From NCBI GenBank assembly GCA_021789995.1, contig JAJYIQ010000003.1, positions 7,767 through 71,766 on the forward strand: DNA of 64,000 nt, in the 5' to 3' direction. This DNA is from a bacterium (GTDB taxonomy: Bacteria; Patescibacteriota; Microgenomatia; UBA1406; GWC2-37-13). Position 1 is the stretch's first letter, and the number at the start of each line of letters is the position of its first letter. The notes beneath the pieces are model-generated. The model was given only the letters and a program-made list of their open reading frames with translations. It had not been told where the DNA came from and ran no database searches. The position numbers and the translations under genes are program-made. This document shows, piece by piece, positions 17,848 through 59,170 of the stretch.

Positions 17848-18111
17848 CTACCGTTGAGCTACAGGGGAAATTAAATTTTTAAGGTACTCACGACCACGAT
17901 AACTTTTTAACTGTTTTTCTCTGATTAGCACTTTATTTCTACTGTCATGCTCTTCTTTATAAAACAGTTCCCAAATTCCATCAAACCTATTCGTATAGCA
18001 GCTTTTAAATTCATGTGTATTATATAATTTTATTCGTAAATCTAAATCTTTAGTTTGACCAATATAGATTTTCTTATGCTTCTTGTTGTAAATTGCATAT
18101 ACATAATACAT
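17848..18111 (-). CDS. GIY-YIG (URI-domain) nuclease family protein, 87 aa
   Basis: YVYAIYN...KIYIGQT, LRIKLYN and REKQLKSYRGREYLKN. It is a paralogue of the ORF at 262-510. It has no stop of its own. The last 6 codons plus the stop are tRNA-Asn nt 1-21 (TCC CCT GTA GCT CAA CGG TAG). Confidence 0.85.
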   Translation of the reverse strand: MYYVYAIYNKKHKKIYIGQTKDLDLRIKLYNTHEFKSCYTNRFDGIWELFYKEEHDSRNKVLIREKQLKSYRGREYLKNLISPVAQR

Positions 18112-18126
18112 ATCAATTCAATTATA

Positions 18127-18169
18127 CTTCTTGCTCTACCTCCGCCAGCTGGCGGAGAGCTACAGGGGA
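18127..18169 (-). other. duplicated 5' half of tRNA-Asn (nt 1-30) with a 16-bp GC palindrome in the D-loop
   Basis: Reverse complement: TCCCCTGTAGCTC-[TCCGCCAGCTGGCGGA]-GGTAGAGCAAGAAG. It is identical to tRNA-Asn nt 1-13 and 17-30, with AAC replaced by the palindrome. TATAAT and the GIY-YIG start follow it. Confidence 0.6.
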
Positions 18170-31074: not shown

Positions 31075-31147
31075 TACGGGGTAGTGTACGGTTGCACAGG
31101 AGGCTCATAATCTCCTAGACCAGGTTCAACTCCTGGCTCCGTAACCA
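31075..31147 (+). tRNA. tRNA with CAT anticodon (elongator Met or lysidine-modified Ile2), CCA encoded
   Basis: TACGGGG-TA-GTGT-ACGGTT-GCAC-A-GGAGG-CTCATAA-TCTCC-TAGA-CCAGG-TTCAACT-CCTGG-CTCCGTA-A-CCA. Positions 1:72 are paired and there is no GGG/CCC anticodon stem, so it is not an initiator. Confidence 0.85.
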
Positions 31148-46000: not shown

Positions 46001-46405
46001 GGGGATGATAGGAATCGACGAGGAATCGGCACTTTTAAAAAATGTCAGGGCGCACCTGTTGCGTCAAACGGAAAAAATACTTGATAAAGAATCATCTTTG
46101 TCCCAAGCTGATGTAGCTTACTTGCAAGCGGTTAAGTCTGGTTTCAGACTTAACTATGCATACGCTGCTTAAGCGCGGCTGTTTGCAGTTTTTGTCCGAT
46201 TCAATCTGCAAATAGATAAACCAATCGGAATAGGATGACCGGAAGTTTTTGGTTGATCCGGAAGTCCGATAAACCCTCAACCAACAATCTATATACGGTT
46301 TGAATATTCCCCAAAATAGATTAGAGTAAAAAATATTCTATCCCTGGCTAAATTTTTTTCGAAGTGTTTCCCCGGACGCGGGTTCAATTCCCGCCATCTC
46401 CACCA
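46001..46405 (+). ncRNA. ssrA: tmRNA (ssrA)
   Basis: The 5' end is GGGGATGATAGGAATCGACGAGG. The 3' end is GGACGCGGGTTCAATTCCCGCCATCTCCACCA, a tRNA-Ala-like acceptor/T arm. The internal tag frame ends ...FRLNYAYAA-TAA (stop at 46170-46172). The resume codon cannot be fixed by eye. Confidence 0.9.
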
Positions 46406-57862: not shown

Positions 57863-59170
57863 TTATAAAAACCGGCTGACTTCTTTCCCCAACTTCACCG
57901 CATAGTTGGTACCGCGGTCGTAAGGATATGTCATGTCGAGGTTGGCAATATAAAAATTCTTGACTGGTGTGATAAAATTCGGTTTGCTTTTTAAGAAAGT
58001 TTTGTCAAATATCGGCTGCGCCCACGGCGCCTTAAATAGAAACGAATTGAGAATTGGTCCGCCGGCTGGCGGATGGAAATTGAAAATTTTCCTCAGGTGT
58101 GGTTTAACGAAATTAACAACCTCCTCTTTATCCATCTTTAACAATGGACTGTTGTTATCTACGTACCACCCGACATAAGTCAAATGATGATTTCCATAAT
58201 GTTTCTTGTCCATAAAGTTTGTGTGCTGGACAATCGCCATCATGGGAATTTTTTCATCGGTGACGTTCAACCAGTATGTTTTTTCCAGAATCGGTTTTTC
58301 CGTTTCCAATATCAATGTCACCGCGTGCAGAAATTTTATTTGATTCAATCGCTTAACGTAACCGGACGGCAAAACATCCTCCCCTATTTTAGTAATAACT
58401 GGGGTAGGTAACGTAGAAATAATAACGTCAAATGTCTCTGTTTTATTTGAACTTTGAATTTTAAACTTTGAGCTTTTAATTATCTTGTCTACACCACTCC
58501 CCTTCCTAATATCGATTCCTAACGACGTATTTTTTTTCTCCAGGTAATTAATTAGTGTTTGAAACCCTCCTTCCGCATATCCCAGCGTTTTGGTTCTTTT
58601 TTTGATCCGTGCCCAGATAAAAGCGGCTAAAATATTTTCCGCATATTTCCCGAACTTTTTCCGAAAAAGCCCTTGCCACAAGATTTCCCACCCCTCTTTT
58701 CCCATCGTTTTCGTTAAAAAATCCTGCGCTGTCTGCCGTTCGTAAACGGATAAAAACGGCGACAGTTTTAAAAAAGCGAGTATTGCCCCGGCCCGGAATT
58801 TCACCGGCCAGCTTAAAATCGGCAGTCTTAAGAAATCTTGCGGAGTATCTACGGGAAAAGCCTGCCTGCCGGCAGGCAGGTGCGGGAATCTTTCGGGAAT
58901 TATGCGGTAATAAGAAGCGGTTACCGGCTCTTTGAATATGAAGCGGTCAAAGCCTACTTCTTCGACAAACGATAATATGTCACTGTCACTGGTAAAAATA
59001 TGATGGTATGTCCGCTCCAGATACCAATCCCAGTTTATCACTCTAAATCCGGCAGCCAGCCCGCCAAGAACAGTTTCTTTCTCAAAAACGGTGACGAGGT
59101 GACCTTTTTTCTGAAGATAATAAGCGGCGGTCAGGCCGGTAAACCCGCCACCCAAAACAGCGATTTTCAT
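57863..59170 (-). CDS. FAD-dependent oxidoreductase (amine-oxidase/protoporphyrinogen-oxidase fold)
   Basis: Start moved to MKIAVLGGGFTGLTAAYYL...VFEKETVLGGLA (GxGxxG dinucleotide fold). The ORF carries three insertion-like tracts, described in the findings. Confidence 0.7.
   Translation of the reverse strand: MKIAVLGGGFTGLTAAYYLQKKGHLVTVFEKETVLGGLAAGFRVINWDWYLERTYHHIFTSDSDILSFVEEVGFDRFIFKEPVTASYYRIIPERFPHLPAGRQAFPVDTPQDFLRLPILSWPVKFRAGAILAFLKLSPFLSVYERQTAQDFLTKTMGKEGWEILWQGLFRKKFGKYAENILAAFIWARIKKRTKTLGYAEGGFQTLINYLEKKNTSLGIDIRKGSGVDKIIKSSKFKIQSSNKTETFDVIISTLPTPVITKIGEDVLPSGYVKRLNQIKFLHAVTLILETEKPILEKTYWLNVTDEKIPMMAIVQHTNFMDKKHYGNHHLTYVGWYVDNNSPLLKMDKEEVVNFVKPHLRKIFNFHPPAGGPILNSFLFKAPWAQPIFDKTFLKSKPNFITPVKNFYIANLDMTYPYDRGTNYAVKLGKEVSRFL
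58058..58073. repeat. GC palindrome TCCGCCGGCTGGCGGA inside the oxidoreductase ORF
   Basis: It shares the TCCGCC/GGCGGA arms (6-bp inverted repeat, 4-nt centre GGCT) and differs by 1 nt from the D-loop palindrome at 18141-18156. It encodes PPAGGP in frame. Confidence 0.85.
58445..58479. repeat. 5 x 7-bp AT-rich tandem heptamer (NTTTGAA-like) inside the oxidoreductase ORF
   Basis: atttgaa ctttgaa ttttaaa ctttgag cttttaa. It encodes SSKFKIQSSN on the minus strand. Confidence 0.75.
58861..58880. repeat. perfect 20-bp GC palindrome CCTGCCTGCCGGCAGGCAGG inside the oxidoreductase ORF
   Basis: The sequence is its own reverse complement. It encodes HLPAGRQA in frame and is embedded in AT-rich coding sequence. 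Confidence 0.85.

Follow-up and report, generated by a model that had tools for sequence, protein, structure and literature searches.

GIY-YIG nuclease cassettes with palindrome-bearing tRNA mimics at two tRNA genes of a Patescibacteria contig, probable members of a widespread selfish family

The stretch of DNA analysed here (hereafter the window) comprises 64,000 nucleotides (nt) of contig JAJYIQ010000003.1 (assembly GCA_021789995.1) from a bacterium of the Patescibacteriota, and it holds two compact cassettes, each lodged at a transfer RNA (tRNA) gene. In both, on the minus strand, a crippled copy of the tRNA gene (the mimic), interrupted by a GC-rich palindrome, is followed by an open reading frame (ORF) for a GIY-YIG nuclease of 82 or 87 amino acids (aa) and then by the tRNA gene itself; one cassette lies at tRNA-Asn (17848-18169) and the other at tRNA-Pro (197-602). 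An earlier examination of the letters of the window (the sequence-only reading) had proposed a recurrent and probably mobile module made of a mimic, a stop-less GIY-YIG ORF and a functional tRNA. The comparative analysis reported here finds the design to be widespread and suggests that both loci probably belong to a family of selfish cassettes that insert into tRNA genes by duplicating part of them.

Architecture of the two window cassettes

The mimic of the Asn cassette is built of two arms, of which the first covers the acceptor 5' strand, U8, A9 and the 5' strand of the D-stem and the second spans G18G19, the 3' strand of the D-stem and the 5' strand of the anticodon stem, where homology to tRNA-Asn stops at nt 30. 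The first arm takes the original place of the tRNA and lies downstream of native promoter-like boxes, which are weak. The half copy running from 18169 to 18127, with the D-loop AAC exchanged for a 16-nt palindrome, had been described beforehand and is confirmed to the base, as are, on reading of the minus strand, the TATAAT-N9-ATG and the 87-aa ORF that come after it. This TATAAT may be a -10 box that gives rise to a near-leaderless nuclease mRNA; a -35 match is missing because the palindrome occupies that place, the box is absent from the list returned by a consensus promoter scan of the window, and a TATAAT lies 6-9 nt ahead of the ATG in about a dozen Asn-subfamily relatives. The final seven codons of the ORF (TCC CCT GTA GCT CAA CGG TAG) are nt 1-21 of tRNA-Asn. 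The cassette, which is flanked by FMN_bind/ApbE and MscL genes, is repeated in a 98.6%-identical contig from another sample and in a Logan assembly, and it is therefore no assembly chimera.

The mimic of the Pro cassette is full-length, retains the two acceptor strands, the variable region and the greater part of the D arm, and ends in an encoded CCA, with its anticodon arm replaced by TCCGCCTTTGGCGGA (579-565) and its T arm by GCCCGCCTAAGGCGGGC (549-533). It is recognised as a tRNA neither by ARAGORN nor by Rfam, even at E <= 1. The TAG stop of the nuclease ORF is U8-A9-G10 of the intact tRNA-Pro. The mimic has a CCA and a trailer of its own, the resident tRNA-Pro gene is without CCA, and the two differ at three further positions; at least the 3' part of the mimic was therefore not copied from the resident gene. 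A retro-copy origin of the Pro mimic, to which the encoded CCA might point, was considered and found not to be general, as a real tRNA-Asn at another locus (L018) also encodes CCA, and the CCA difference seems better read, from these comparisons, as element-borne sequence. The alignment of the two cassettes that had been proposed as a check gives nuclease proteins that are 48% identical, and everything that the sequence-only reading stated of the letters of both cassettes holds.

Table 1. Coordinates of the cassettes and of other features in the window, given as positions of the window.
Feature	Position	Strand	Basis or remark
Asn mimic, 5' arm, TCCCCTGTAGCTC	18169-18157	-	identical to tRNA-Asn nt 1-13 at 17868-17856
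Asn mimic, signature palindrome TCCGCCAGCTGGCGGA, 16 nt, perfect	18156-18141	.	replaces D-loop nt 14-16 (AAC)
Asn mimic, 3' arm, GGTAGAGCAAGAAG	18140-18127	-	identical to tRNA-Asn nt 17-30
TATAAT (18126-18121) and 9-nt spacer, then ATG at 18111	18126-18112	-	read from sequence
Asn-cassette GIY-YIG nuclease ORF, 87 aa, motif REKQLKSYRGRE	18111-17848	-	Pfam PF01541, E = 1.7e-13
tRNA-Asn(GUU) 5' exon, nt 1-34 as counted, ends ...CUGU	17868-17835	-	sequence and Rfam intron
Group I intron inside the anticodon, between U35 and U36	17834-17318	-	Rfam RF00028, 77.4 bits over 17520-17325
Intron HNH ORF, 124 aa	17800-17426	-	PHROG 2255 match, E = 2.8e-28
tRNA-Asn 3' exon, UAACUUCG ... CGGGGGAG, CCA not encoded	17317-17280	-	sequence
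tRNA-Pro mimic, full-length, 81 nt	602-522	-	sequence comparison
Pro-cassette GIY-YIG ORF, 82 aa, general subfamily, motif REKFLKSGKGRE	510-262	-	Pfam E = 8e-16
Intact tRNA-Pro(UGG), functional copy 3' of the cassette	271-197	-	ARAGORN; Rfam tRNA, 67.5 bits
FAD-oxidoreductase-like ORF, 443 aa, host of two palindromes	59194-57863	-	ORF reading
Third Asn-type palindrome, TCCGCCGGCTGGCGGA	58058-58073	.	in-frame in the 443-aa ORF, encodes PPAGG
Second GC palindrome type, CCTGCCTGCCGGCAGGCAGG	58861-58880	.	in-frame in the same 443-aa ORF, encodes LPAGRQ

Both window nucleases are members of the GIY-YIG superfamily (Pfam PF01541) and, together with relatives of 78-90 aa, consist of a bare catalytic domain without a DNA-binding domain; the Seg/I-TevI-like layout of ~200-250 aa, with a linker and a DNA-binding domain, is found in neither. 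Residues Y5, Y16, G18, R26 and E65 are invariant in 25 relatives, and Y5, Y16 and R26 of the Asn nuclease align with Y6, Y17 and R27 of I-TevI. An AlphaFold2 (AF2) model of the Asn nuclease, in which the tRNA-encoded tail (residues 84-87) is disordered, has a pLDDT of 90, and its closest folds by Foldseek are UPF0213 (1zg2), then Slx1 and At-HIGLE, then the catalytic domain of I-TevI. The single-domain build, a W-x-L-x-Y-x-E ... RE-x-x-(L/I)K signature and profile matches to BH0048 (1zg2, E = 1.1e-3) and 1ywl (E = 1e-2) likewise place the proteins with the UPF0213/Slx1-like group, where BH0048, EF2693 and Slx1 are closest; this similarity is weak (<=29% identity), and the cassette nucleases thus form a distinct subfamily. 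The NCBIfam model for group I intron endonucleases, TIGR01453, matches residues 4-38 only, at 23.5 bits against a cut-off of 56 bits, and the PADLOC libraries return a marginal 'homing endonuclease' match only. To our knowledge, GIY-YIG enzymes are DNA nucleases. Codon 30 of the window Asn nuclease (18022-18024), which corresponds to I-TevI H31, is Tyr (TAT), a position held by His in >90% of relatives and also in the 98.6%-identical contig from another sample (CAT, locus L162).

Recurrence, order and turnover of the cassettes

For the Asn subfamily, a scan of 185,579 species genomes, one genome per species, yielded 433 relatives, of which the best 80 loci, all from Patescibacteria metagenome-assembled genomes and holding 83 ORFs, were analysed; a further 80 metagenome loci were analysed for the second, Pro-type subfamily, so that the two subfamilies together provide about 160 loci from unrelated studies. 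The proposal of a recurrent module is upheld by them, as the same design is found at these loci and at about a dozen tRNA identities. The 519 database homologues of the Asn nuclease are, where named, Patescibacteria proteins; many have a C-terminus of ...SPVAQR, ...SPVAQW or ...IPR, a translated tRNA 5' end, and some over-long gene calls start with ...SSPPAGGGRA..., which is the palindrome in translation. A tRNA called intact by ARAGORN lies directly downstream of 69 of the 83 ORFs (68 Asn and one Lys) and begins -44 to +125 nt relative to the ORF end, the remaining 14 ORFs being members of tandem arrays or lying at intron-split tRNA-Asn genes or contig ends. Of 70 ORFs, 56 have their stop inside the tRNA, in any frame and with overlaps of 10-11, 21, 37 or 44 nt, and 14 have it ahead of the tRNA, four of these within a second mimic. 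As each reading frame of tRNA-Asn meets a stop within the first 37 nt and the ORF abuts nt 1 of the tRNA, the overlap is a by-product and no device; of the 'stop-less ORF' of the sequence-only reading, the stop within the tRNA thus stands, and the special design falls with the 14 relatives that stop earlier.

Nearly all Asn-subfamily loci have a mimic with the same palindrome upstream of the ORF. The palindrome replaces exactly 3 nt in 58 of the 60 loci that could be analysed in this respect, and the replaced triplet directly precedes G18-G19 of the D-loop in 55 of the 60; in other lineages the palindrome is found after nt 3, 8 or 21 and, as read by eye, past nt 25 or within the T loop in relics that lie downstream, and nested copies also occur, in which one palindrome sits in the centre of another. 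Past the palindrome the mimic matches the tRNA again as far as nt 21-30, the commonest endpoint being nt 25, where the D arm finishes. The first duplicated base is tRNA nt 1, with any likeness further upstream confined to -1 to -4; as native TATAAT boxes are found 17-25 nt ahead of the mimic, the latter stands in the original place of the tRNA. A longer upstream repeat, of ~10-15 nt of the ORF 3' end, was considered and rejected, as only -1 to -4 exceed a cross-locus control. The 5' arm of the mimic is identical to that of its own tRNA (13/13 nt) in 39 of 46 comparable loci, and its own tRNA is the best match in 44 of the 46, which represent 22 distinct tRNA-Asn 5' ends. At one locus (L019, 2390-2500) the mimic is chimeric, with a junction at the palindrome: its 5' arm, TCCGGCGTGGCGC, is that of another tRNA-Asn type, the adjacent real tRNA has TCCCCTGTAGCTC, and the arm past the palindrome matches the adjacent tRNA. 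This arrangement hints, as far as the letters go, at a recombination or transfer event.

The Pro-cassette nuclease has 86 homologues and is one of a wider group that shares the motif REKFLKSGKGRE. Beside the ORFs of this group lie tRNA genes for Pro (three anticodons), Ser (three), Arg(ACG), Cys, Gln, Tyr, Trp, Ile and Asn; some of the ORFs are on soil contigs, the tRNAs of which look like those of ordinary bacteria, not Patescibacteria. In this second subfamily the order is mimic-ORF-tRNA at 34 loci and tRNA-ORF-mimic at 33, so that the module order first proposed is right for both window loci and has a mirror image elsewhere. GC palindromes turned up in most of these loci, and solely beside the non-functional copy. 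The palindrome measures 15 nt, reads TCCGCC-YNR-GGCGGA or has a co-varying stem (CCAGCC/GGCTGG, TCGGCC/GGCCGA or CCCGCC/GGCGGG), and takes the place of entire loops or arms, 7-17 nt in length. Where a mimic is partial, it invariably retains the tRNA 5' end if it lies upstream of the ORF and the 3' end if it lies downstream. In a neighbour-joining tree the nucleases group by tRNA identity, with Pro, Ser, Arg, Cys, Gln and Asn clades; the window Pro nuclease groups within the Pro-associated clade, the lone Lys case lies inside the Asn clade, and both cassette orders are mixed within clades. ARAGORN calls the tRNA-Arg mimics of L091, L130, L132 and related soil loci 80-nt 'tRNA-Ala(tgc)' and the mimic of L100 'tRNA-Ser(tga)', because TCCGCC-TGC-GGCGGA imitates an anticodon arm.

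Several loci bear signs of turnover. Tandem arrays, of the form mimic-ORF-mimic-ORF-tRNA or its mirror, occur at nine loci at least (L022, L025, L027, L032, L035, L039, L053, L091 and L097); in L091 one unit has shrunk to the ATG and the final 14 nt of the ORF, and the related L094 is without that unit. Decayed, ORF-less tRNA fragments that still bear the palindrome lie downstream of tRNA-Asn in L018, L064 and L070. At two loci (L055, 2199-2749, and L063, 2199-2722) an ORF like those of the second subfamily sits directly upstream of an Asn cassette at the same tRNA-Asn, and at L055 this extra ORF has a different palindrome, CCTGCCTGCCGGTAGGCAGG; different cassette lineages can thus stack at one tRNA. 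An identical 78-aa nuclease, P0147, is found in L175 and L176 with the same upstream genes and differing mobile-element genes downstream (HTH_17 and DUF3987 in one contig, an rve integrase and HigB in the other), from which the cassette-bearing tRNA is probably, judging by gene content, also an integration hot spot for larger elements.

The pattern TCCGCC-N(0-8)-GGCGGA occurs three times in the window against 0.04 expected, and this excess, with the recurrence at about 160 independent loci, excludes chance. Palindrome type follows nuclease subfamily, with 16 nt and a 4-nt centre in the Asn subfamily and 15 nt and a 3-nt centre in the second, and the stems co-vary yet stay complementary, so that a hairpin or a palindrome-preserving mechanism is under constraint. 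With real anticodon stems removed, stem mismatches number about 10 G:T and 6 A:C, which is no usable bias, and a role at the RNA level is therefore inseparable by such counts from one at the DNA level. A third copy of the Asn type and a palindrome of a second type lie in-frame in a single 443-aa ORF of the window that resembles oxidoreductases using flavin adenine dinucleotide (FAD); the PPAGG residues encoded by the third Asn-type copy are missing from the 11 closest homologues of that ORF, and the CCTGCCTGCCGGCAGGCAGG type (CCTGCC...GGCAGG) adjoins GIY-YIG cassettes in L055 and L077. On these positions, the palindrome acts as an independent unit. Possible roles are the removal of the nuclease site from the spare copy, the breaking of repeat homology that would delete the cassette and, by analogy with the REP/RAYT relation, service as the nuclease's own substrate.

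The tRNA-Asn gene beside the window cassette is also host to a group I intron with an HNH ORF, which is a separate mobile element outside the cassette. Joining of the exons gives a normal 72-nt tRNA-Asn(GUU), the canonical cloverleaf of which was read by eye; ARAGORN makes no call because the intron interrupts the gene. The 'functional tRNA' of the sequence-only reading is thus borne out as regards the cloverleaf and needs the qualification that the gene is split. A group I intron occupies the same tRNA-Asn site in six more cassette-bearing genes (L008, L016, L032, L045, L046 and L051), so that one small gene has been colonised by two different nuclease-bearing elements. The third tRNA gene of the window, tRNA-Met(CAU) at 31075-31147, has a TAGTATAAT box 16 nt upstream and is without cassette, mimic or palindrome; cassettes thus occupy two of the three tRNA genes. 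An ordinary transfer-messenger RNA (tmRNA) gene lies at 46001-46405 (Rfam, 102.6 bits), and tmRNA would act on any nuclease mRNA deprived of its stop codon by RNase P.

Insertion-duplication weighed against other explanations

Both window loci are best explained, with somewhat better than even confidence, as members of a widespread family of selfish, recombining insertion-duplication cassettes of ~300 base pairs that land in tRNA genes. The unit would consist of a tRNA-derived homology segment with a family-specific GC palindrome and an ~80-aa GIY-YIG ORF, and recombination with a resident tRNA gene would place the ORF between two direct tRNA repeats, one a complete, functional tRNA and the other the palindrome-bearing mimic. 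The nuclease would make the break that drives copying, and the route may be repair of that break from a cassette-bearing copy (homing), in which the mimic would supply the left arm of homology, or a single crossover to the same effect. Exchange on the 5' side of the palindrome would give mimic-ORF-tRNA, as at both window loci, and exchange on its 3' side tRNA-ORF-mimic; the Asn segment is 3'-truncated, and therefore only the former outcome would keep the tRNA alive. The orders found, 69:0 in the Asn subfamily versus 34:33 in the second, are as insertion-duplication predicts. The original promoter would read mimic, ORF and tRNA as a single transcript, the ORF would run on into the first in-frame stop within the tRNA, and a cut by RNase P at tRNA +1 may leave a non-stop mRNA, so that nuclease production would be throttled. 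The palindrome would be a cis element tied to the nuclease, which may label or abolish the nuclease site in the spare copy and may break the homology that would otherwise delete the cassette.

A number of observations weigh against such a selfish, mobile family. Exact-protein look-ups of the flanking FMN_bind gene and of a 90%-cluster relative led to cassette-bearing contigs only, and the closest ApbE homologues (64-68% identity) keep the FMN_bind-ApbE operon and not the tRNA neighbourhood; no cassette-free orthologous locus was recovered in these searches, and the presence/absence polymorphism that is a hallmark of homing was not seen. The cassette of P0109 is found in 19 contigs from several samples, without variation and always in the same genomic surroundings. 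The nuclease family is absent from the viral contigs of IMG/VR, homologues in Rhizobium phages are distant (36-37% identity) and without a tRNA link, and a plasmid search gave two weak matches. Promoter scan matches are at chance level, and a terminator scan found none. The presumed target and the intact tRNA copy have the same sequence, so that self-immunity is not obvious, and an 80-aa catalytic domain is without evident means of sequence-specific recognition. The ORFs are intact and ~60% identical across phylum-level lineages, which the gene of a decaying selfish element need not be. Lastly, the His30-to-Tyr change may mean, to judge from its conservation elsewhere, that the window Asn copy is impaired, a recent loss-of-function variant. 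The earlier suggestion of mobility is supported in an indirect manner, by the many tRNA targets, nuclease clades that follow tRNA identity with occasional switches, arrays, relics and the foreign trailer of the Pro mimic, and lacks a cassette-free orthologous site.

One rival is a palindrome-mobilising nuclease of the REP/RAYT kind, which we judge unlikely on the whole. Here the 15-16-nt palindrome would be the primary mobile unit, spread by the GIY-YIG protein, the gene would merely reside by tRNAs, and the crippled tRNA copies would be spares that absorb insertions lethal in a sole functional copy. Palindrome type co-varies with nuclease subfamily, stems co-vary with perfect complementarity, exactly 3 nt give way to the Asn-type unit at positions independent of one another (nt 3, 8, 13-15, 21, 25, the T loop and nested), and copies exist outside cassettes, two of them in-frame in one window coding sequence and absent from homologues, all of which this account would explain; it leaves unexplained that the ORF always lies between two tRNA repeats, that clades track tRNA identity and that partial mimics obey the 5'-anchored/3'-anchored rule. 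Moreover, second-subfamily palindromes replace 7-17 nt and resemble in-place remodelling of arms, not clean insertions, copies outside cassettes are few (about one per 30-80 kilobases), and we know of no GIY-YIG enzyme that acts as a transposase of this type. A slightly less probable proposal is that the module has been domesticated to serve the cell, in repair or maintenance of a heavily transcribed tRNA gene, in tRNA processing or dosage control, or as a decoy. The ~60% identity with invariant catalytic residues over Microgenomates, Parcubacteria, Saccharibacteria, Berkelbacteria and WWE3 speaks for it, as do the stable position in populations, the identity that the mimic retains with the local tRNA and the necessary co-transcription of ORF and tRNA where they overlap, but arrays, ORF-deleted units and decayed solo mimics form a pattern of birth and death, the module occurs in both orders and beside about a dozen different tRNAs, and only two of the three window tRNA genes are occupied. 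The 433 relatives in 185,579 species genomes also sit poorly with a cellular service (that most Patescibacteria are without the cassette is an uncounted impression), as does the active-site His-to-Tyr change of the window Asn copy.

Two further accounts assign the mimic an active part. In one, which is distinctly improbable, the palindrome-bearing tRNA fragment would be the targeting module of a nucleic-acid-guided, structure-specific ~80-aa nuclease: the mimic strand, either RNA transcribed from the native promoter or DNA in the course of strand exchange, would pair with the intact tRNA gene, the arms would anneal with the palindrome extruded opposite ~3 unpaired bases, and the resulting three-way junction would be recognised and cut by the Slx1/HIGLE-like GIY-YIG domain. 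If specificity resided in the mimic, clades would therefore track the tRNA, the hairpin the subfamily and the arms the local tRNA, and the 3-nt replacement would follow; the same activity could seed 15-20-nt palindromes elsewhere, including in-frame in genes. In the other, which is more doubtful still, the system would work at the RNA level, with the transcribed mimic as a tRNA-like RNA to which the palindrome would lend a handle for protein binding, and which would serve as a guide of the nuclease to the matching tRNA gene or as a decoy or antitoxin against a tRNA-directed toxin, in the manner of type III toxin-antitoxin systems. Both arms beside the hairpin match the local tRNA, hairpin type co-varies with protein subfamily, the mimic lies within the transcript from the native promoter, the protein has no targeting domain and resembles junction-specific nucleases, and loop orientation is moderately asymmetric in the second subfamily (40 vs 15), as an RNA function might have it; yet the stems have no excess of G:T over A:C (about 10 vs 6), the mimic is downstream of the ORF in half of the second-subfamily loci, and neither an evident RNA-binding feature nor a match to an Rfam family is found. 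That the half-tRNA repeat is an assembly chimera or chance repeat, with a spurious ORF call, has a negligible probability. Short-read metagenome assemblies can in principle collapse or chimerise repeats, but independent assemblies from other samples have the same structure at 98.6-99.9% identity; the design is shared by about 160 loci from unrelated studies, and the protein has a Pfam match of 1e-13 and an AF2 pLDDT of 90.

Relation to known systems and significance

The cassette works most like two known kinds of element, free-standing GIY-YIG homing enzymes and tRNA-targeting integrative elements, and fails defining features of both. SegB of phage T4 is a free-standing GIY-YIG homing enzyme encoded in a tRNA cluster, the site of which is the TpsiC motif of tRNA genes, and it homes together with neighbouring tRNA genes by a break and recombination (PMC2330249); it also drives tandem amplification of tRNA segments via breaks and homologous recombination (PMC13096335). 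The likeness of SegB (T4/T6) lies in the GIY-YIG domain, the position of the gene among tRNAs and a tandem amplification comparable to the cassette arrays. SegB is a phage protein of roughly 220 aa that includes a DNA-binding portion, whereas the cassette proteins, of 78-88 aa, are confined to the catalytic domain, are encoded on the chromosomes of Patescibacteria and other bacteria, and fall in with UPF0213/Slx1, not with the Seg/I-TevI enzymes; SegB loci are also without a crippled tRNA copy, a signature palindrome or an ORF-tRNA overlap, all three of which are features of the cassettes. With tRNA-targeting integrative elements the cassettes share the landing site, a partial duplication that keeps the gene working and flanking direct repeats, and the tRNA-ORF-mimic order, with its 3' fragment downstream, mirrors attL/attR. 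Unlike those elements, they have no integrase or other recombinase, the nuclease ORF of ~250 nt being the only one between the repeats, what is duplicated is the 5' portion of the tRNA (Asn subfamily) or the whole tRNA (Pro) instead of the usual 3' end, and the displaced copy carries a conserved palindrome.

More distant parallels concern single parts of the cassette. UPF0213/YhbQ/Slx1-type proteins are closest to the nucleases in sequence and fold, and UPF0213 matches them in size and domain content, but no genomic partner has been assigned to UPF0213 proteins, Slx1 depends on Slx4 and has branched DNA as its substrate, and we know of no link of either to tRNA genes or palindromes. REP/RAYT systems likewise place short GC-rich palindromes beside the gene of a presumed mobilising enzyme and disperse them elsewhere, and Rickettsia palindromic elements have copies in-frame inside protein genes; in the cassettes, however, the enzyme is of the GIY-YIG type instead of an HUH/Y1 transposase, the palindrome is confined to one side, measures 15-20 nt and has few copies, and the link to tRNA duplication has no counterpart in either system. 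The homing endonucleases of group I introns, which are GIY-YIG or HNH enzymes, also colonise tRNA genes without killing them, but the cassette lies outside the mature tRNA and the gene is kept by duplication, not by splicing; Rfam finds no intron or ribozyme at 17848-18169 or 262-602. The architecture is not described in the full-text literature that was searched, including for the palindrome string (subscription-only literature lay outside the search), and it is a real possibility that the mechanism represents a new kind.

If the proposed mechanism is true, the cassettes would represent a third way for selfish DNA to settle in tRNA genes without killing them, beside self-splicing introns and the att duplications of integrases, and the smallest nuclease module known for doing so. 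For the UPF0213/YhbQ-like stand-alone GIY-YIG family, they offer a genomic partner and a testable function. They also pose a hazard to annotation, as mimics are called as tRNAs and gene callers read through them, which produces the SSPPAGGGRA N-terminal extensions. The 15-20-nt GC palindromes, which are able to land in-frame in proteins, are possibly a tiny mobile unit, and the cassettes, at the tRNA genes of Patescibacteria and other bacteria, may shape tRNA copy number via tandem arrays.

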